Shown here: positions 601-13,834 of the stretch, one piece after another
Position numbering within the stretch: position 1 is the first letter of the stretch
Layout: each line of letters starts with the position of its first letter
Source: a virus
Strand: one strand, 5' to 3'
IMG/VR virus record: IMGVR_UViG_3300032675_001827
Coordinates: 10,605 to 74,604 of that record
DNA length: 64,000 nt
The notes under the pieces: model-generated
The model's input: the letters and a program-made list of their open reading frames with translations, nothing else
Told to the model about the DNA's origin: nothing
Database searches by the model: none
Program-made: the position numbers and the translations under genes

Positions 601-1764
601 GAAGACTTTGACGAGCGTCTTGTTAATTACATGGCAGACGATTTTAAAAAGACTAACGGCATAGACTTACGCAATGACAAACTGGCTTTGCAGCGTCTAC
701 GCGAATCAGCTGAACGTGCCAAAATTGAACTGTCAAGCACAACAGAAACAGAAGTAAACATTCCATATGTTACTGCTGACGCAAGCGGTCCAAAACATCT
801 TTTGTTAAAAATTTCAAGGGGTAAATTTGAAAGTTTAATAAGCGATCTAATTGAAAGAGCTATAGCTCCTTGCAAAGCTGCACTAGCCGATGCTGGTTTA
901 AAGCCCGGTGACATAAAAGAAGTTATTCTAGTTGGTGGTTCAACACGTATTCCTGCAATTCGCAATGCTGTTAAAAACTTCTTCGGTAAAGAACCTAGCA
1001 ATGCTGTAAATCCTGATGAGGCCGTTGCCATAGGAGCTGCCATTCAAGGTGGTGTTCTTCAAGGTGACGTTAAAGATGTACTACTTCTTGACGTTACACC
1101 TCTTTCACTTGGTTTGGAAACATTAGGCGGAGTGTTTACACGATTGATAGATCGGAACACTACTATTCCAACAAGAAAGAGCCAGGTTTTTTCAACAGCA
1201 GAAGACAATCAAAATGCAGTTACAATAAGAGTTTTCCAAGGGGAACGCGAAATGGCTGCTGATAACAAGCTTCTTGGGCAATTTGATTTAACAGGTATAC
1301 CGCCTGCACGCAGAGGAACACCTAAAATCACTGTCACCTTTGATATTGATGCTAATGGAATTGTTTCAGTAAGTGCCAAAGATGAAGCAACAGGAAAAGA
1401 GCAACAAATTACTGTCACTGCAAACGGTGGACTGTCAGACGAAGACATTCAACAAATGGTAGCCGATGCTGAGAAAAATAAAGCAGCTGACCAGGCTAAA
1501 AAAGAAATGGCAGACGCACGCAATGCAGCACAGGCCGCTATTAATTCAGCTGAACGTCAAGTTGAAGAAGGTGAAGATCTTGATCAAAATCTAGTAGATC
1601 AGCTGAATGCTGCTAAAGCAGAACTGCAGAATCTACTAAATGATGACGCTGTTGCTTTAGATCAATTACGAGAAGCAAGCAGTAAACTGATTAATGCATC
1701 AATGGCTCTTGGTCAAAGTCAGTATCAAACAATTAATCCAGAAACGGCTTCAACTGAGCAATAA
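601..1764 (+). CDS. dnaK: Hsp70 chaperone DnaK, 3' exon
   Basis: [71 protein letters not shown]. The first 39 aa of the tracked ORF 484..1764 are intron sequence. Confidence 0.95.
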
Positions 1765-1765
1765 T

Positions 1766-1797
1766 AAAAAAGGTGTAGCTAAAAACTACACCTTTTT
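1766..1797. terminator. Bidirectional intrinsic terminator between convergent dnaK and the release-factor gene
   Basis: AAAAAAGGTGTAG-ctaaaaa-CTACACCTTTTT hairpin with A and T tails. Confidence 0.85.
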
Positions 1798-2488
1798 ACC
1801 ATAATAAGTCAATCATTCCTTTTGACAATTGTCTTGTGTTAATAGTTTTATTATTTCTATGATCACAAATTTCATCATGCTGTAAACGATAGGTGCGTAT
1901 TTTATCACCTCTCTGGCCAGACCCAACTTGTGCCTTTTTTTCTGAGCTTATTTTTTCATGCTGCTGTATACCAAAGTATTGTCGCAGTTTAGCAGTTAGA
2001 TCGTTTTTAGCTTGGGTATAACTAGTTTCTCTACTGCGAGTCTGAGCCGTAACTGTGATTCCAGTTGGCGTATGGGTAAGCCTTATACTATTCTGATGTT
2101 TATTTCTGTGCTGGCCTCCTTTACCTGTACCGCTGAACCACGATAAACTTAGATCTTTTTCATCTAATACAAACTCATTGGTCAAGTTTGGATCTATAAC
2201 ACTAACGGTAACAGTACTGGTGTGCACTCTACCTTTTTTCTCAGTAGGTGGCACACGTTGCCATCGATGACCTCCGGCTTCTGCTTCAAGTTTTTCTAAA
2301 TTTTGTCCTGAAAATTCAAGTGAGATGGCAAAATTGCCGTGCCCTTTTGTGCTGGGTCTCACATCTGCCCAGCGGCACTTTCAACCAACTCTGGTTGCTA
2401 GATTAAAATAGATGTCTGCTAAATCTTTAACTAACAGCTGACTATCAGCACCGCCTTCGGCAGCGTGTATTTCTATTATTCTACGCAT
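1796..2488 (-). CDS. Minimal class I peptide chain release factor, RF1-like (PPT and GGQ motifs), with an in-frame TGA at codon 36
   Basis: SD AGGAG then ATG at 2488 gives MRRIIEIHAAEGGADSQLLVKDLADIYFNLATRVG*KCRWADVRPS..., in frame with ORF 1796..2362. That ORF has EAGGHRWQRVPPTEKKGRVHTS, GKGGQHRNK and RGDKIRTY. The TGA is at 2381-2383. Confidence 0.88.
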
Positions 2489-2553
2489 GCTACGTCTCCT
2501 TTTACATGGTTTCTATACTATTTAATTATTGTCTAAGAATGTCAAGAAAAGAC

Positions 2554-2582: not shown

Positions 2583-2615
2583 GAAGTCAATCGCATTAGT
2601 GAAAAGGAGATAGAT

Positions 2616-2954
2616 GTGGAAAAAACTTTTACTATCGTTGGCGTAAGTACTATTGGAACTCCGACCAACAACCAGACAAAATTTCGCGTTGCCAATGGCG
2701 ATCTTGCTGCTCGACGTAAGGTGCTTGAGCGAGTAGGACATTTTGATATTAATCTTATTGATCTTCCTACTCCAATGACCAAGCTGGCAGCTATTGAATA
2801 TTATAAATCACTTTATCCAGAAGCAGCTGGCATTCGAATGCTAAATCAAAAAGAAGTTTCACCAAAAGCCAAAACAGTTGTTCTGCGAGGAGCGAACAAA
2901 AAGTCCGTAGCAGACGCTGCGTCAGAACTTTTGCGAGCGATCGAAGAAGTATAA
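2616..2954 (+). CDS. Hypothetical phage protein
   Basis: SD AAGGAG then GTG at 2616, in frame with ORF 2529..2954. Confidence 0.7.
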   Translation: MEKTFTIVGVSTIGTPTNNQTKFRVANGDLAARRKVLERVGHFDINLIDLPTPMTKLAAIEYYKSLYPEAAGIRMLNQKEVSPKAKTVVLRGANKKSVADAASELLRAIEEV

Positions 2955-2959
2955 TAAAG

Positions 2960-2988
2960 TTGGCTTATCGGAGTTAATGCTGTATAAT
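2960..2988 (+). promoter_or_regulatory. sigma70-type promoter placing +1 at or near the ATG at 2995 (leaderless)
   Basis: TTGGCT-17 nt-TATAAT, with ATG 6 nt downstream. Confidence 0.6.
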
Positions 2989-2994
2989 TTGCAT

Positions 2995-3084
2995 ATGGAT
3001 AAAGTAGAAATGGATAAAGTAGAAATGGATAAAGTAGAAATGGATAAAGTAGAAATGGATAAAGTAGAAATGGATAAAGTAGAA
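2995..3084 (+). repeat. Perfect tandem repeat, 6 x 15 bp (ATGGATAAAGTAGAA)
   Basis: Read directly from the sequence. Confidence 0.97.
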
Positions 3085-3483
3085 ATCATATTCAAAAAAC
3101 AAATAGCTAATTCTCCGTGTATGGCAATGATGTTACAAGCTCATGCTGAACTAATTGAAAAAAGCTGGGCAATGAATATACTTCCGTTTGGGCATAAAAG
3201 CAGTTGCATTTATGCTCAAATTGAAAATGACATTGCAGGTGCTATAGTTTTTATTTTTGACCCTGATATTGAAGTTGTACACACTCAGTTATCCTATGTG
3301 AAACCACAGTATCGTGGCCGGCGCATATACCAGTCAATGCACAAATACCTGCATGATTATGCACGTAAAGTCGGAGCGCATAGAATAACCAGTACAGTTC
3401 ATATAGACAATCAGCCACTTTTGCAAGCAAGTACACGAAGCGGCATGACTACTCGCTGGGTTGCACAGATTTTAGAATTGTAA
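2995..3483 (+). CDS. GNAT family acetyltransferase with an N-terminal (MDKVE)6 repeat
   Basis: YVKPQYRGRRIY (acetyl-CoA motif A) and VHIDNQP. Confidence 0.75.
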   Translation: MDKVEMDKVEMDKVEMDKVEMDKVEMDKVEIIFKKQIANSPCMAMMLQAHAELIEKSWAMNILPFGHKSSCIYAQIENDIAGAIVFIFDPDIEVVHTQLSYVKPQYRGRRIYQSMHKYLHDYARKVGAHRITSTVHIDNQPLLQASTRSGMTTRWVAQILEL

Positions 3484-7641: not shown

Positions 7642-7929
7642 TTATAATAATCTTTTTGGATTAACCAAATATGAAAAAGCAGAATTTTCTAATTGTAATG
7701 TAATTTGGTCATATATTGACTTTAATTCGCACAGCATTGCTTTATTAGGAAAGTCTAAAAAATCTACAAATGCTATTTCAAAAATTTGAGATAAAAACCC
7801 CACTGCCGATGCTGCGTCTAAATCTATAACTGCTGACGAGTTATCAAGATAATCTTTGAATACCATAACGCGCCTGCGCATTGTACAAGCAGCATTAATA
7901 GACAAACTGATCCATTCTTTGTGTATCAT
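7642..7929 (-). CDS. Hypothetical protein
   Basis: ORF with SD AGGTGA, downstream of TATAAATA at 7950-7957 (minus strand). Confidence 0.55.
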   Translation of the reverse strand: MIHKEWISLSINAACTMRRRVMVFKDYLDNSSAVIDLDAASAVGFLSQIFEIAFVDFLDFPNKAMLCELKSIYDQITLQLENSAFSYLVNPKRLL

Positions 7930-8031
7930 ATGATCACCTATATATTAAATATTTATATTGAAACATGCTGGATATCTCTTGACTTACCATACAATTATTG
8001 TATGTTTTCTAATAGTTTGGAGGGGATAGGA

Positions 8032-8451
8032 ATGGCAAAAAGTCTCAGTGCCGGTGTTGTAATTACCAATGGAACTAGTATTCTGTTATGTCATGTAACA
8101 GGTAATAAACATTGGGATTTGCCAAAGGGTAAAGTAGAATCTGGCGAACATGTTCTTAATGCTGCGATTAGAGAATGTTTTGAAGAAACCAGCATCAAAT
8201 TGCAAGAAGATCAGTTGGTCGATTTGGGCATATTCAAATATAAAAAAGATAAGGACCTTCATCTTTTTCTACAACTTACTGCTGACATGCCTGACACTGA
8301 TAAACTGGATTGTTCAAGTACGTTTGATAGTGGTAAAGGCATACACAAAAAAGAAATGGATGCATTTGCAAACGTTACATGGGATAAAATTCACAAAAAA
8401 GTATTACCTGACATGTTACGTGTGTTAATGGAAGTAAAAGACCAACTGTGA
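8032..8451 (+). CDS. NUDIX hydrolase
   Basis: Nudix box PKGKVESGE....AAIRECFEETSI; SD GGAGGGG. Confidence 0.9.
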   Translation: MAKSLSAGVVITNGTSILLCHVTGNKHWDLPKGKVESGEHVLNAAIRECFEETSIKLQEDQLVDLGIFKYKKDKDLHLFLQLTADMPDTDKLDCSSTFDSGKGIHKKEMDAFANVTWDKIHKKVLPDMLRVLMEVKDQL

Positions 8452-8984
8452 AACCAAAAACACTATTTGATAAAATAATTACATTTTGGTGGATATTCTG
8501 TTGCGTTGCAGGAATAGCAATAGGCTTTCCACTAAGCGTGTATTTTGATACGTGGTACCTGATTTTATTACAACTTGTACCATTATGTGTCTCATTTTTT
8601 TCTTTTTTAATTCATAGTATGCACTCTTGCCAAGACAGAGTTTGGTTAGTTAGGTTGGTATGCTCATTATCTAGAAATCTTACGCCTGTAGAATTATATA
8701 GTTACCGTGCAGAAAAAACATACTCGGTAGCCAAAATAGATCAAGATGGATTATTGCATGCATACTGCTGTTGGTTTTATGAAATCGGTGATTGTATTTT
8801 GCTTCCAAATGGTCATATTAGTGAAAATTCCGACGTAAGTTATCAGTTTTTCTGGATGCCATTGCGCAGAAACGAAAGGGTTGAATTTATCTTACGCAAC
8901 GATTTACCTGATTTTGCACAGATTGCACAACTGCCAAAAGCGGAACGCTGCCGTCTTATGTCCCAGTATAAGGATAAACAATGA
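8448..8984 (+). CDS. Hypothetical membrane protein (two N-terminal TM segments)
   Basis: Hydrophobic stretches at aa 10-55; GTGA overlap with the upstream gene. Confidence 0.65.
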   Translation: MKPKTLFDKIITFWWIFCCVAGIAIGFPLSVYFDTWYLILLQLVPLCVSFFSFLIHSMHSCQDRVWLVRLVCSLSRNLTPVELYSYRAEKTYSVAKIDQDGLLHAYCCWFYEIGDCILLPNGHISENSDVSYQFFWMPLRRNERVEFILRNDLPDFAQIAQLPKAERCRLMSQYKDKQ

Positions 8985-9066
8985 GCAACTATGGATTAGC
9001 TAATTTTTCGTTGTGCATTACCTGATACTAGTGTACAATGTTTTTAATATTTTTTTTGGGGATAAC

Positions 9067-9891
9067 ATGACTGATAATACAGCGTTAGGTGATCGTATGA
9101 AGGAATACGAATCCTATGAAACAAATAGAAAGTTCATGCCTGGACTACCAATCTACGCACGGGTAGACGGTCGCGGATTTTCTAGATTCACAAGAGGCAT
9201 GGAACGGCCCTATGACATTCGTATGAGTAATGCAATGATCGAAACAACCAAAGTGTTGGTTGAACAAACGCATGCTACTATCGGCTATACTCAAAGCGAT
9301 GAAATTTCATTGGTATGGATCCCTAATGAACACGGGCACAATTGGTTTGACGGTAAAGTAATGAAAATGACCAGTGTGCTGGCAGGTCTAGCAACTGCTG
9401 CGTTTGGCCAGGCAATTTTGCTGGAATTCAGCAACATGCACGGTCTTCCTTTGTTGCAAAAAATGCCTCACTTTGATACCCGTGTGATCAGCATGCCTAG
9501 TGAGATTGAAGCTGCTAACATGTTGCTGTGGCGAAATCAGGATTGCGCAAAAAATAGCATAACAATGGCAGCAAGCTCTCTTTACAGTCATAAAGAACTT
9601 CAAGGTAAGAATTCAGCTAACAAGCACGACATGCTATTCGACAAGGGCATAAATTGGTCAACCGACTATCCGTATTTCTTTAAGCGTGGGACATTTGTTA
9701 GACGACGCTCTGTTGAAAGATTGTTGGCCGAACACGAGTTGAATTCTATACCAGAAGAATATCGACCTGCATCAAATGAGAGAGTTGTTAGATCAACGGT
9801 TGACCCGTACGATCTACCTCCACTTTCTAAAATAGAAAATTTAGTCCCTGTGTTGTTCAAGGATGCTGACCCTGTGTTACGATCTGGGTAA
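9067..9891 (+). CDS. thg1: tRNA(His) guanylyltransferase Thg1-like protein (3'-5' polymerase)
   Basis: RMKEYE, ARVDGRGFSRFT, YTQSDEISL, FDGK..K..S, FDTR, WRNQD..KNSI, FKRG. Confidence 0.9.
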   Translation: MTDNTALGDRMKEYESYETNRKFMPGLPIYARVDGRGFSRFTRGMERPYDIRMSNAMIETTKVLVEQTHATIGYTQSDEISLVWIPNEHGHNWFDGKVMKMTSVLAGLATAAFGQAILLEFSNMHGLPLLQKMPHFDTRVISMPSEIEAANMLLWRNQDCAKNSITMAASSLYSHKELQGKNSANKHDMLFDKGINWSTDYPYFFKRGTFVRRRSVERLLAEHELNSIPEEYRPASNERVVRSTVDPYDLPPLSKIENLVPVLFKDADPVLRSG

Positions 9892-10620
9892 CACAGGGTA
9901 ATACAATCTTCTTTCAATCCATCCGTCGCCTGGATGCTTAAATGATATTTTATTTGTTATACCATTATTATACCATTTTCGACCAACTCGTGCATGACTT
10001 AGTTTTCTTTTAGATTCTGTTGTGTGTGGCGTACCAGATCTACCTTTTAGTTTGCTCGGTTTACCTTTTTTCGCAAAACTTATCTTTGCACATCTCTCTG
10101 CGATCCATATCTGATTTTTACCCGCATCTCGTATTTTTTCAATGGTTTCTGGTGTATGACGTTGTAGACCAATCTTACCTTTATTCCACGGAACAGATCC
10201 TAATTTTAATTGAGATATTTTAGCACACGTTTCGGCAGTTACAACTCGGTTACGTTTTGCAACAGACATCTTGTGTTTTGTTTCGTTGGATATAGGCGCA
10301 TCTCGCCTGAAAGCTACCCCTCTAATATTTCCGTTTAGCCATTTTGGGTCTTGTAACACTTTCATCCGGCGTAATACTTTTTCTTCCCAGATAATTGCGT
10401 CGTTGGGTGTGTCAAACTCGCGTCGAATTTCAAATAGAAATGCTGAATCTCCGTATTTTTTTCTTAATTTTGCTATTTTCTTACTACTGGTAAAGTAATG
10501 AATCCAAAAATCTTGCTTTGCCTGTAGACGATTTCGCCATCTTACCCCATAATAGTATTGATTTGTTGGAATACACTTCAACAGGTATGTATAAGGTCTA
10601 GGACCTGCATAAGTAGTCAT
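9877..10620 (-). CDS. Free-standing GIY-YIG-type (Seg-like) homing endonuclease with NUMOD3-like repeats
   Basis: PYTYLL...YYYGVR, YFTSSK, E..VL, WLN; repeated HT.E.K.K(I/L)S motifs; C-terminal KWYNNG. Confidence 0.8.
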   Translation of the reverse strand: MTTYAGPRPYTYLLKCIPTNQYYYGVRWRNRLQAKQDFWIHYFTSSKKIAKLRKKYGDSAFLFEIRREFDTPNDAIIWEEKVLRRMKVLQDPKWLNGNIRGVAFRRDAPISNETKHKMSVAKRNRVVTAETCAKISQLKLGSVPWNKGKIGLQRHTPETIEKIRDAGKNQIWIAERCAKISFAKKGKPSKLKGRSGTPHTTESKRKLSHARVGRKWYNNGITNKISFKHPGDGWIERRLYYPVLPRS

Positions 10621-10687
10621 GTGCTGTTGCTCCTTTCAAGCAATAGAGTGGTCGGAGAGTGCGAATCTCGTGGACCACACTTATTTA
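10621..10687 (-). promoter_or_regulatory. Late promoter plus structured 5' leader of the homing endonuclease
   Basis: On the minus strand: TAAATA, stem GTGGTC/GACCAC enclosing GAGA/TCTC, then TTGCT-TGAAAGG-AGCAA pairing into the SD AAGGAG, then ATG. Confidence 0.65.
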
Positions 10688-10709
10688 GCTCTATAGTCTG
10701 CAGGATAAC

Positions 10710-11030
10710 ATGGCCACTAGGCACTATTACAGCCACAAAGATATGCATCTTAAGAATCAAGCTGTCATGAATGAAATGCTTTTTGCCAAGGGAGTTAATT
10801 TTAACGACTATCCTACTTTTTTCAAAAGAGGTACATGGGTTCGAAGAGTAACTGAAGAACGGATTCTCACAGCCGAGGAATTGGATAGAATTCCTGAGAA
10901 ATATCGCCATATGTCAACAGAATTGCATTTACGGAGTAAGATGGTAGATTTTGATTTGCCTCCTCTTAATAAAATTGCCAACCTAAGGGATTTGCTCTTT
11001 TATAGTAAATCTATCGTTAACAAAACCTAA
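10710..11030 (+). pseudogene. Displaced second copy of the Thg1 C-terminal third (frame still open)
   Basis: Aligns by eye at about 50% identity to Thg1 from Met at 9565: YSHK, MLF.KG.N, DYP.FFKRGT.VRR, IPE.YR, DLPPL.KI.NL. Confidence 0.85.
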
Positions 11031-11040
11031 GGAAAATAAC

Positions 11041-11229
11041 ATGAAGACAATGCTATTAATGTTTATGACACTAAACGGAAACCCTGTTGGACCAACAGAA
11101 TACATTTTACCTGTATCTGATTCATGCAGGTCAGAACTTAATTATATCAAAGGTATTAATCAAGTATACGAACAAGGAAAAACTGGCATGTTTATCTATG
11201 CCAGTTGCGAACCTGTTAAAATCAAATGA
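11041..11229 (+). CDS. Small hypothetical protein
   Basis: SD AAGGA; 62 aa. Confidence 0.6.
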   Translation: MKTMLLMFMTLNGNPVGPTEYILPVSDSCRSELNYIKGINQVYEQGKTGMFIYASCEPVKIK

Positions 11230-11453
11230 TTACAATTTCAAACGATCGACCGGATTGGTGTCACATCTCTGTTACTGACACATAGGGCGGCAAGAATATT
11301 CATGTGACATGGAGTTTGGAACTTGAACAAATAATTCAATGGGCTAAAAAGAAAATGCAGTATGAAAAACAGGAAATAGCTGTGCGAGAAAATAACCCTG
11401 CACTGAATGATGCGTGGGAAACCTATCAAACGCTCTATAAATTGATTAGGTAA
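11226..11453 (+). CDS. Small phage protein interrupted by an in-frame TAG at codon 20 (missed by the ORF track)
   Basis: ATGA-coupled start: MITISNDRPDWCHISVTDT*GGKNIHVTWSLELEQIIQWAKKKMQYEKQEIAVRENNPALNDAWETYQTLYKLIR. The TAG is at 11283-11285. Confidence 0.6.
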
Positions 11454-11692: not shown

Positions 11693-13834
11693 ATGATGAA
11701 GATTAACGCGACAGAAACGGCAATTGTCGAGCGCAATGGTATTGCATCTGATGGTGCATTTACTATTCAGTTCAATGCCAAAATGGCTAAGATCCTCAGC
11801 GATGGTCTTTACAGCGATAAAATTCAAAGCATCATTCGCGAACTTACCTGCAATGCTATTGACAGTCATGTTGAAGCCGGCAAGGCAGATGAACCAATCG
11901 AAGTCCATCTTCCTACCATTTTTGAACCATGGTTTTATGTGCGAGATTTTGGCGTAGGACTTGATCACGAGCAGGTGATTAAGATTTATACCTGCTATGG
12001 AGCATCTACAAAAACAAATTCAAATGAATTTATTGGACAGCTTGGGCTAGGCAGCAAGAGTCCGTTCTCATATGTAGATGCCTTTGACGTTACAGCACGT
12101 AAAAACGGCATTGAACGGCAGTATTCAATGTATAAAAATGAAGAGGGCATGCCTAGCGTTGCTCTTTTGCACGAATCTTCTACAACAGAACCCAACGGCA
12201 TTACTGTCAAAATGCCTGTCATTAATGGGGATTACAACCGATTTATTGACAAAGCCAGGCAGGTATTTCGCTGGCTGTCAGTTAAGCCTCTTGTAACAGG
12301 TGTTAGTGAGTTTTCTGTTATGCCTGTTGAAAACATGTGGGAAGGTGATGGGTGGGCTGTTCGTCGCAAGAGTATTGACAGCTACTACAATTCAAGTGCT
12401 AATTTTGCTGTTGCACTTATGGGAAAAGTTGCATACCCTATTGCAAGTAATAGTATTTCAAATCTAACCGATGTGCAGCGAGCTGCGTTGTCGTTACCTA
12501 TCACGTTGACGTTTGATATTGGCGAACTTGACGTGGCCGCCAGTCGTGAAGCACTTGGCTATAATGCCTATACTCAACAAAATATCAAAAACAAGCTTGA
12601 TGTAGTGGTGCGCGAGATTGGTAAGGTATTTGAGGAAAAGGTTTCTAACGCCAAAACTGAATGGGAGGCACGAGAGCTCTTTGGAAGGATTTTTGATCGA
12701 AGCACTGGCTTTCGTCATGAACTGGAAACAATTTATGGCAAACAAGGTCTAAATTGGCGAGGAATCGTAATTAAAAACAATTATATCGAACTTGATACCA
12801 GTGAGCTATGGGATAAAAGTATTACTCCCGGAGTATACAGTTTTCTTGGTGGTTACAAGAACCTGCGACAGTTCACCTATCATGATAAAATTGCTTTTCG
12901 GTGTTCCAGCCAGATTCGGATTGTATTTGATGACATGCCTGTTGGCGGCAAAAACCGCATGAAATATTTGCGTGAATGTGTAGGCCCTGATCCGGATATC
13001 TTCTATTTGGAACCAAGCCCGCTCAAAACTGTTGAAGAAGTCGCTGCAATGCTTGGTAATGCACCTTACACGTTTACCAGTATGCTTCCTAAGAAGCCGG
13101 CTGAAAAGCGGGAACGTGTGCACATGCTGCGGTTTACTGGTTATGATAAAGCAAAGAAGGCTTGGGCGCCCGTTGATATTGAAATTGATGACGGCGGATT
13201 TTATGTGCAACTGTCACATTACGATGTGATGGACGGTGAGCAGGTTCATAGCAATTTTGAGAGCACAATTCAATGGGCACAAAAATGCGGAATTATCTCA
13301 AGCGATACTGTCATTTATGCTCCTCGATATGGATTGAAGAATAAAGTTGCTGAACACGACGATTGGGTTGAATTTTTTGGCTGGTTGCGTAATCAAATCA
13401 CGCAGAAGCTCAGTGTAAAAGTTGCACAAATCGCCGCAGACAGTCATGAATATAGGCAATTTACCGCAAATATGCGTGACAAAACGCTTTGGCAGTCGCA
13501 TATGCAACTTGTCACAGCCAACAGCCTGTTTGCCAGGTTTAGATCAGCAATGATGCTGCTTGAAGCGAAACATCAACAAGCAGATAAAAACGAAGCACTT
13601 GTTTCTCTAGCACTACGGTTTGGGCATGATACCAACAAAGTTCCGCCAAGCGAAAATGTCCATCAACTGTGGGAAATGATCAAACAAGTTTATCCTATGT
13701 TGCCATTGGCACTAGATCGGTATGGCTATTCAGCATATGGCAATAATCAGCACGTTATCAACTATATCAACATGGTTGATAAAATGACTGAAGTTTCTAT
13801 AGAAACAGCAGTGTCAGACGTAATTAACGCTTGA
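11693..13834 (+). CDS. rIIA: rIIA-like protein (N-terminal GHKL/Hsp90-type ATPase)
   Basis: LYSDKI..IIREL.CNA.DSH, VRDFGVGL, YGASTK, IGQLGLGSKSPFSY, SREAL.Y; lies next to rIIB. Confidence 0.88.
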   Translation: MMKINATETAIVERNGIASDGAFTIQFNAKMAKILSDGLYSDKIQSIIRELTCNAIDSHVEAGKADEPIEVHLPTIFEPWFYVRDFGVGLDHEQVIKIYTCYGASTKTNSNEFIGQLGLGSKSPFSYVDAFDVTARKNGIERQYSMYKNEEGMPSVALLHESSTTEPNGITVKMPVINGDYNRFIDKARQVFRWLSVKPLVTGVSEFSVMPVENMWEGDGWAVRRKSIDSYYNSSANFAVALMGKVAYPIASNSISNLTDVQRAALSLPITLTFDIGELDVAASREALGYNAYTQQNIKNKLDVVVREIGKVFEEKVSNAKTEWEARELFGRIFDRSTGFRHELETIYGKQGLNWRGIVIKNNYIELDTSELWDKSITPGVYSFLGGYKNLRQFTYHDKIAFRCSSQIRIVFDDMPVGGKNRMKYLRECVGPDPDIFYLEPSPLKTVEEVAAMLGNAPYTFTSMLPKKPAEKRERVHMLRFTGYDKAKKAWAPVDIEIDDGGFYVQLSHYDVMDGEQVHSNFESTIQWAQKCGIISSDTVIYAPRYGLKNKVAEHDDWVEFFGWLRNQITQKLSVKVAQIAADSHEYRQFTANMRDKTLWQSHMQLVTANSLFARFRSAMMLLEAKHQQADKNEALVSLALRFGHDTNKVPPSENVHQLWEMIKQVYPMLPLALDRYGYSAYGNNQHVINYINMVDKMTEVSIETAVSDVINA

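Follow-up and report, generated by a model that had tools for sequence, protein, structure and literature searches.

A probable intron-less homing cassette with a replacement 3′ end in the thg1 gene of a freshwater jumbo phage

Endonuclease genes that bring a new end to the gene in which they settle have been described in fungal mitochondria, where gene hybrids formed by so-called mORFs are known from atp6 of Allomyces macrogynus, atp6, atp9, cox2 and nad3 of Glomus sp., atp9 of Rhizopus and cox2 of Mortierella (PMC3630166 and references therein). Here we describe a related arrangement in the thg1 gene of an uncultured phage, located in a 64,000-nt stretch of DNA (positions 10,605 to 74,604 of the IMG/VR virus record IMGVR_UViG_3300032675_001827) that is referred to as the window. 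The gene very probably contains an intron-less homing cassette of about 1.15 kb, inserted near codon 165-167 at the boundary between its catalytic and Thg1C domains. In all likelihood the cassette combines three parts: a thg1 3′ end of foreign origin, a free-standing GIY-YIG/NUMOD3 endonuclease gene in antisense orientation, and the leader of that gene.

As in the mORF hybrids, an endonuclease open reading frame (ORF) in the gene appears to have brought a foreign C-terminal part, with the native C-terminus found downstream, and the foreign end is phylogenetically misplaced while the native end groups with close relatives. An earlier note on this DNA had mentioned that similar 3′-end replacement is known for organellar endonucleases, which the fungal examples bear out. 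The window differs from them in that its host is a phage, in that a whole domain of about 105 codons is exchanged, and in that both a donor and a recipient sharing an identical tract and a stage of decay can be seen. Furthermore, mORFs lie on the same strand as the gene, in frame or co-transcribed, whereas the window endonuclease gene is antisense and convergent and, with its own ribosome site, would be expressed separately from thg1.

Intron-less homing in phages is known from the free-standing Seg (GIY-YIG) and Mob (HNH) endonucleases of T4, namely SegB, SegF, SegG and MobE (PMC2988022, PMC2330249, PMC2790892). The window element resembles the Seg systems in its free-standing GIY-YIG enzyme, its NUMOD-type DNA-binding repeats, the co-conversion of flanking host-gene sequence and its patchy occurrence among related phages. 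However, Seg genes are intergenic and replace flanking markers without a duplicate, whereas the window insertion lies within a gene and is followed by a stranded remnant. Endonuclease genes inside essential or conserved phage genes are found in Aeh1 nrdA/mobE and T4 gene 39-60/mobA (PMC2988022), but those genes yield two polypeptides that reassemble, while the window gene stays whole and the cassette supplies its end. The review of T4 mobile elements covers co-conversion as well as split genes, and words starting with "duplicat" do not occur in it (PMC2988022); displaced gene ends are not described in a study of ICP1 (PMC10448857). No phage account of this layout, and no paper linking thg1 with a phage endonuclease in this manner, was found in the literature searched.

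Layout of the locus and its endonuclease gene

Three parts follow one another in the window: a complete thg1 gene (9067..9891, + strand), an antisense endonuclease gene (9877..10620, − strand) and a partial second thg1 copy (10710..11030, + strand). The earlier note had described an intact thg1, an antisense GIY-YIG-type gene whose stop overlaps the thg1 end and a roughly 50% identical copy of the last ~105 codons, and each of these was confirmed. The stop codons of thg1 (9889-9891, +) and of the endonuclease gene (9877-9879, −) place the two ORFs in convergent orientation with an overlap of 15 nt.

The thg1 product is a 274-aa tRNA-His guanylyltransferase-like protein, identified from the ORF list and Pfam and read here as a hybrid of its own 5′ part and a cassette-borne 3′ end. 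Pfam assigned a Thg1 domain to aa 10-144 (4e-29; PF04446, 101.5 bits) and a Thg1C domain to aa 170-221 (PF14413, 21 bits, which is under the cut-off of 26.3 but at the expected position). The DGRGFS and SDE motifs are visible in its sequence, and it aligns over its full length with phage Thg1 proteins at 44-51% identity. Within the phage GenBank collection no near DNA match was found, and the top Thg1 protein matches did not exceed 51%. Because the junction at residue ~165-167 falls between the two Pfam domains, the duplicated part corresponds to the whole Thg1C domain.

The 247-aa endonuclease was assigned by Pfam (NUMOD3, 4e-12, aa 124-164; SegE_GIY-YIG, PF19835, 27.9 bits against a cut-off of 25) and PHROGs (phrog_314, homing endonuclease, 2e-18). 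Residues Y12, Y23, G25, E79 and N96 are invariant across 17 endonuclease homologues, and R27 is present in the window enzyme and most of the homologues, so that the Tyr of GIY, the Tyr-x-Gly of YIG and the Arg, Glu and Asn of the GIY-YIG catalytic set are all accounted for. An AlphaFold2 model was obtained with a mean predicted local distance difference test (pLDDT) score of 68.5 and values of about 71-92 in the N-terminal nuclease domain. Foldseek placed the I-TevI catalytic domain (1mk0, 1ln0) at ranks 1-3 for this model, with a probability of 0.96-1.0 and a template modelling score on the target of 0.62-0.68, although the best E-value was only 7.5e-3. The modelled catalytic domain has the GIY-YIG alpha/beta fold and, with the Y..YxG..R..E..N residues, resembles I-TevI, while sequence identity to I-TevI is ~19-20% and no sequence-level match to PDB sequences was obtained. 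NUMOD3 and further helical repeats, seen in Pfam and the model, form a separate DNA-binding module. In contrast to I-TevI, the locus has no intron: no intron or other RNA family was detected by Rfam over 8800-11400, and this, together with the SegE-like domain and the contiguous thg1 ORF, identifies the enzyme as free-standing.

The leader of the endonuclease gene (10621..10704, − strand) contains a hairpin as well as the ribosome site AAGGAG, and its folding energy is −24.8 kcal/mol (z −2.0). It forms the right end of the cassette and lies within a tract that is 100% identical in a second phage (see below). A 36-nt segment of the hairpin (10644-10679, −) also occurs in other contigs of the same lake metagenomes with 3-4 differences; its flanks there are unrelated, and it is single-copy in the window.

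Origin of the two thg1 ends

A total of 3672 thg1 homologues were found, and native-end comparison was performed with 120 homologues, for which the 5′ part of thg1 (aa 1-166), its in-gene end and the downstream copy were each considered on their own. The downstream copy comprises 106 open codons and is 53% identical to thg1 aa 167-264 (BLASTP E 4e-32), far above chance. Protein P0006, encoded on contig L005, is 82% identical to the window Thg1 in the 5′ part and then follows the downstream copy, to which its first 18 residues past the junction are identical; it is 71% identical to this copy and 52% to the in-gene end. On L005 thg1 comes after a NUDIX gene and is accompanied by neither an endonuclease gene nor a duplicate. 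The earlier note had suggested that endonuclease-free relatives should match 10710-11030 better than the in-gene end, and L005 does so: identity is 0.65 (aa), 0.62 (nt) and 0.77 (nt, first 40 codons) for the downstream copy, against 0.52, 0.51 and 0.57, respectively, for the in-gene end. In ordinary pairs with a 5′-part identity of at least 0.85, end identity has a median of 0.70 and a minimum of 0.59, compared with 0.49-0.52 in pairs with one endonuclease-linked member. The alignments therefore demonstrate a foreign end in the gene (9559..9891, +; Thg1C domain, codons ~165-274) and a native end behind it (10710..11030, +). The foreign tract starts a few codons before the ATG, at about codons 159-164 ('DCAKNSIT').

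The same three-part layout was found in L004, a 6981-nt contig from one metagenome scan. An ungapped alignment of the window with L004 has 0 mismatches over 9382-10720 (1339 bp), a tract that comprises the recently transferred unit and its co-converted edges, whereas both flanks are ~28% different, with ~13-17 differences per 50 bp, saturated synonymous divergence (dS) and a non-synonymous divergence (dN) of 0.14-0.20. The last differences before the tract, upstream of 9382, all affect third codon positions. Proteins of the next genes show 65% and 34% identity, and the two contigs have nothing else in common. The endonuclease gene is thus present at the site in the window and L004, absent from it in L005 and L007, and carried in a shared 1339-bp tract, as is typical of homing.

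An identical tract that exceeds the length of short reads could also mean that flanks were mis-paired during assembly, the 1.3-kb repeat being common to strains of the metagenomes. Such a chimera is highly improbable here. The layout was assembled independently many times, with the proteins on 12-14 contigs, and one 14-kb contig covers the whole region without a difference; the left and right flanks of L004 both match L005 and are therefore correctly paired, and mis-pairing would not create a duplicate.

Comparison with L005 was also informative on the direction of transfer. Along thg1 codons 1-160 the nt identity between L004 and L005 is 0.74-0.91, while the window and L005 are 0.63-0.77 identical up to ~codon 80 and 0.83-0.88 identical in the common tract. 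Over 9382-9558 the L004-L005 identity stays at 0.86-0.9, and the window-L005 identity climbs from ~0.7 to 0.84-0.88. Since the latter rises to the L004-L005 level inside the tract, the 1339-bp tract is likely of L004/L005 type and the window lineage its recipient. The window event was very recent, with a donor probably from an L004/L005-like lineage. The resident, vertically inherited 5′ part of the window gene would then span 9067..9381 (+; nt identity to L004 0.74, dN 0.14, dS saturated) and be followed by 177 bp of co-converted thg1 sequence that arrived with the cassette (9382..9558, +); downstream, at most 11-29 bp were co-converted. Joined to each other, the 5′ part and the displaced copy of L004 give a gene like that of L005 (nt identity 0.86-0.91 up to the junction and 0.88 directly behind it, the latter over the first 40 codons of the displaced copy), so that by this alignment the displaced copy is L004's own former end.

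A third background is provided by a 19,689-nt contig with Thg1 protein P0001 and endonuclease P0156. P0001 is identical to the window Thg1 over residues 88-274, and P0156 is ~97% identical to the window endonuclease. At residues 62-76 the otherwise L004-like P0001 carries a patch (TLVDQCNATIGYTA) with six differences, every one of which agrees with the cassette-borne 5′ end of L007, described below; the patch lies right at the L007 5′ junction. This patch may be a short conversion tract of a second endonuclease, left without gain of its gene.

The earlier note had also pointed to a junction microhomology. The 12-mers it quoted are present, ATAACAATGGCA at 9559 (9559..9570, +) and ATAACATGGCCA at 10705 (10705..10716, +, reading ATAAC-ATGGCC), but their interpretation is only partly upheld. 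Within the repeat, ATGGC is ordinary gene homology and the extra match amounts to the five bases ATAAC, with a 1-nt indel and a chance of occurrence of roughly 0.001-0.005. ATAAC matches the cassette-type allele, whereas the uninterrupted alleles of L005 and L007 read GTCAGC and GTGAGC at this place; the DNA homology of the downstream copy to these alleles begins exactly at ATG 10710, and the ATAAC before it falls inside the 1339-bp identical tract. The five bases may be the microhomology of a founding illegitimate join or, just as well, two codons that survived from the first recipient and lost 1 nt. The junction repeat is suggestive rather than decisive as a sign of founding microhomology.

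Recurrence, linkage and decay of the cassette

Separate trees were obtained for the two parts of thg1. The C-part tree unites the ends of the window, L004, P0001, P0153, P0002, P0014 and P0019 in one clade (Shimodaira-Hasegawa-like approximate likelihood ratio test (SH-aLRT) 97) and places the displaced copies in another (99), together with P0006/L005, P0018/L007, P0044, P0045 and P0049. The N-part tree joins the window, L004 and P0001 to P0006 (95) and scatters the remaining endonuclease-linked alleles, for example P0014, which is found with P0053 (99). Monophyly of the endonuclease-linked set was rejected in the 5′ tree by the approximately unbiased (AU) test (log-likelihood difference 126, p 0.004). 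Identity drops at one and the same place, just before 'NSI(T/S)MA', in four independent background pairs. According to these comparisons, which demonstrate recurrence at one site on several backgrounds, the endonuclease-linked end is present on at least four unrelated 5′ backgrounds. The conflict between the half-gene trees, the L005 allele and the identical tract in L004 together support the proposal of the earlier note that an intron-less mobile unit of ~1.15 kb brought a new 3′ end.

Two homologous copies 1.1 kb apart could also result from a tandem duplication of the thg1 3′ end in place, with later divergence of the copies and subsequent arrival of the endonuclease gene between them. We consider this very unlikely, given that a clade of the two ends of the same genome was rejected by the AU test (log-likelihood difference 79, p 0.028), that the in-gene end is nearest to other endonuclease-linked ends on different backgrounds, and that dS between the copies is saturated.

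Endonuclease homologues were recovered at 100, 78, 64, 64, 61 and 58% identity, and endonuclease identity tracks end identity (100/100, ~90/91, 78/68 and 64/59%). The longest contig of both P0122 (endonuclease, 78%) and P0002 is 34,468 nt, and that of both P0123 (endonuclease, 64%) and P0014 is 4,034 nt; a 1,333-nt contig is common to P0155 and P0004, as is a 6,388-nt contig to P0157 and P0153. In the P0153 lineage thg1 with the cassette end is intact, but the endonuclease ORF has a length of 162 aa and begins only past the GIY-YIG domain, and the first ~60 codons of the remnant are deleted. The first 28 residues of P0155, an ORF at a contig end, are antisense thg1 3′ end (61% identical to the antisense frame of L005, E 3e-9), and the endonuclease is joined after this part at ~residue 78. 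This fusion indicates that a ~500-bp deletion removed the remnant start, the leader and the nuclease domain, and a stage of decay is thereby demonstrated in the contigs.

In the proposed mechanism the endonuclease would cut uninterrupted thg1 alleles near the junction, and the break would be repaired from a cassette-bearing, co-infecting phage by using the thg1 5′ part as the left homology arm and the displaced 3′ end of the donor as the right arm. The recipient would gain the replacement end and the endonuclease gene, and its own 3′ end would be left as a stranded remnant. Because the insertion would split the target site and the replacement end differs at many positions, the allele would become immune while still encoding a complete Thg1; both junctions in the window do differ from the uninterrupted site at many positions. 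The unequal co-conversion in the window, with 177 bp upstream and at most 11-29 bp downstream, fits this repair model and, as with I-TevI, would fit cleavage upstream of the insertion site. Three elements of this account are inferred: how specifically the enzyme cuts, that the hybrid allele is immune, and by which pathway the break is repaired. The uninterrupted L007-type allele co-occurs with the window phage in contigs of two lake metagenome runs, and potential target genomes therefore share lakes with it.

Several points weigh against homing through cleavage of thg1. Cutting of thg1 by the enzyme is a prediction, and an identical tract can also arise from general recombination. Among the assembled contigs, which drop rare variants, there was no joint skipping the cassette and no endonuclease-less variant of the window phage. 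The AU tests used groups that were named only once the trees were in view, and co-residence of Thg1 and endonuclease in the P0002, P0014, P0153 and P0001 lineages was read from equally long contigs. The first two of these points would suit ordinary homologous recombination between co-infecting phages, with the endonuclease as a passenger or cutting outside thg1, and nuclease genes in phages often merely mark the boundaries of exchange (PMC10448857). We nevertheless regard that explanation as distinctly unlikely, since the identical tract is centred on the endonuclease gene, the same junction occurs on at least four unrelated backgrounds, end and endonuclease identities co-vary, and the endonuclease is intact in the young cassette and deleted in an older one.

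IMG/VR scans with the remnant, P0002, P0004 and P0149 recovered no further cassette loci, and L101 proved to carry an ordinary full-length thg1. The DNA polymerase gene at L101:137-3647, on an unrelated phage contig, is called in two ORFs of 810 aa and 385 aa that overlap, and an element appears to have been inserted where they join. Proteins P0148, P0149 and P0150 are 87-aa ORFs, on contigs of up to 280 kb, that comprise the thg1 C-terminal part only and start near 'NFNDYP'; they may be ends displaced at a different junction, or broken genes. At L044:205-597 (−) a NUMOD-type, endonuclease-like ORF that is 30% identical to the C-terminal half of the window enzyme lies ~500 bp upstream of another thg1 (66% identical).

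The displaced copy, a mirror-image case and implications

The earlier note had considered that the displaced copy may be expressed, and it could indeed be a working gene, either as a separately translated Thg1C-domain protein or as a selected alternative end. Its frame is open in both the window and L004, it keeps all of the family-invariant motifs (YSHK, FFKRGT and DLPPL), an AGGA precedes ATG 10710 by 4 nt, and dN is far under the saturated dS. We consider a working remnant improbable, however. The displacement is too recent for decay, the cassette being without mismatch, so that an open frame and conserved motifs are expected and are not evidence of function; for the same reason the low dN/dS, which has no computable value with dS saturated, reflects an earlier life in a working gene. 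The AGGA-ATG spacing is short, and the remnant frame has no promoter of its own, as a promoter scan found sites to be no more numerous than in shuffled sequence. In the P0153 lineage the first ~60 codons are gone, and P0145, a close variant of the window-type remnant (P0161), differs from it by four replacements, two of them to proline. Expression of the displaced copy was therefore not supported.

A mirror-image layout was observed in a syntenic sister phage at L007:1429-3437, and also in L002, L003, L006 and L008. There, behind a displaced thg1 5′ fragment (1429..1659, 76 aa, homologous to ~codon 71), come an antisense GIY-YIG endonuclease gene that differs from the one in the window (1663..2526, 287 aa) and a full thg1 (2613..3437). 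Identity between the two L007 thg1 5′ ends is 61%; each is ~67% identical to relatives, and either could be the native one.

The window contig is a 74.6-kb IMG/VR virus with an estimated completeness of ~18% and is therefore a fragment of a jumbo phage; this uncultured freshwater phage is present in many lake-water metagenomes. Gene neighbours identified with Pfam and PHROGs are a NUDIX hydrolase (7921-8451), a 178-aa ORF and rIIA (11693-13834). At 8981-9066, an ATGA-coupled 14-codon ORF together with a terminator-like hairpin (9009-9040) takes up the 82-nt gap before thg1. An ATGA couples thg1 directly to the NUDIX gene in L005; the corresponding position in L007 is occupied by the displaced 5′ fragment. 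The first ~62 residues of the window Thg1 resemble the cassette-borne 5′ end of L007 (YESYET, PYDIRMSNAMIETTK), and a search for an L007-type 5′ cassette scar upstream of the window thg1 gave no convincing similarity.

The locus appears to be a case of a homing endonuclease that can inhabit a protein-coding gene with neither intron nor intein because it carries a spare end for that gene. The stages recorded comprise the empty site (L005, L007), fresh invasion with co-conversion tracts that can be measured (window, L004), spread on several backgrounds and decay (P0153 lineage). Such a cassette would explain, domain by domain, why the phylogeny of a phage enzyme is mosaic, and the enzyme and its natural target form a pair that is open to direct test. 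Annotators should bear in mind that a short 'hypothetical' ORF next to an endonuclease gene may be the displaced end of a gene. More tentatively, thg1 of this freshwater jumbo-phage clade could be a hotspot in which two unrelated GIY-YIG cassettes swap the 3′ Thg1C part (window) or the first ~70 codons (L007 group). End replacement with a remnant might then be a general endonuclease-driven route to domain-level mosaics in phages, in which the remnant would persist for a while as a downstream homology arm for homing.

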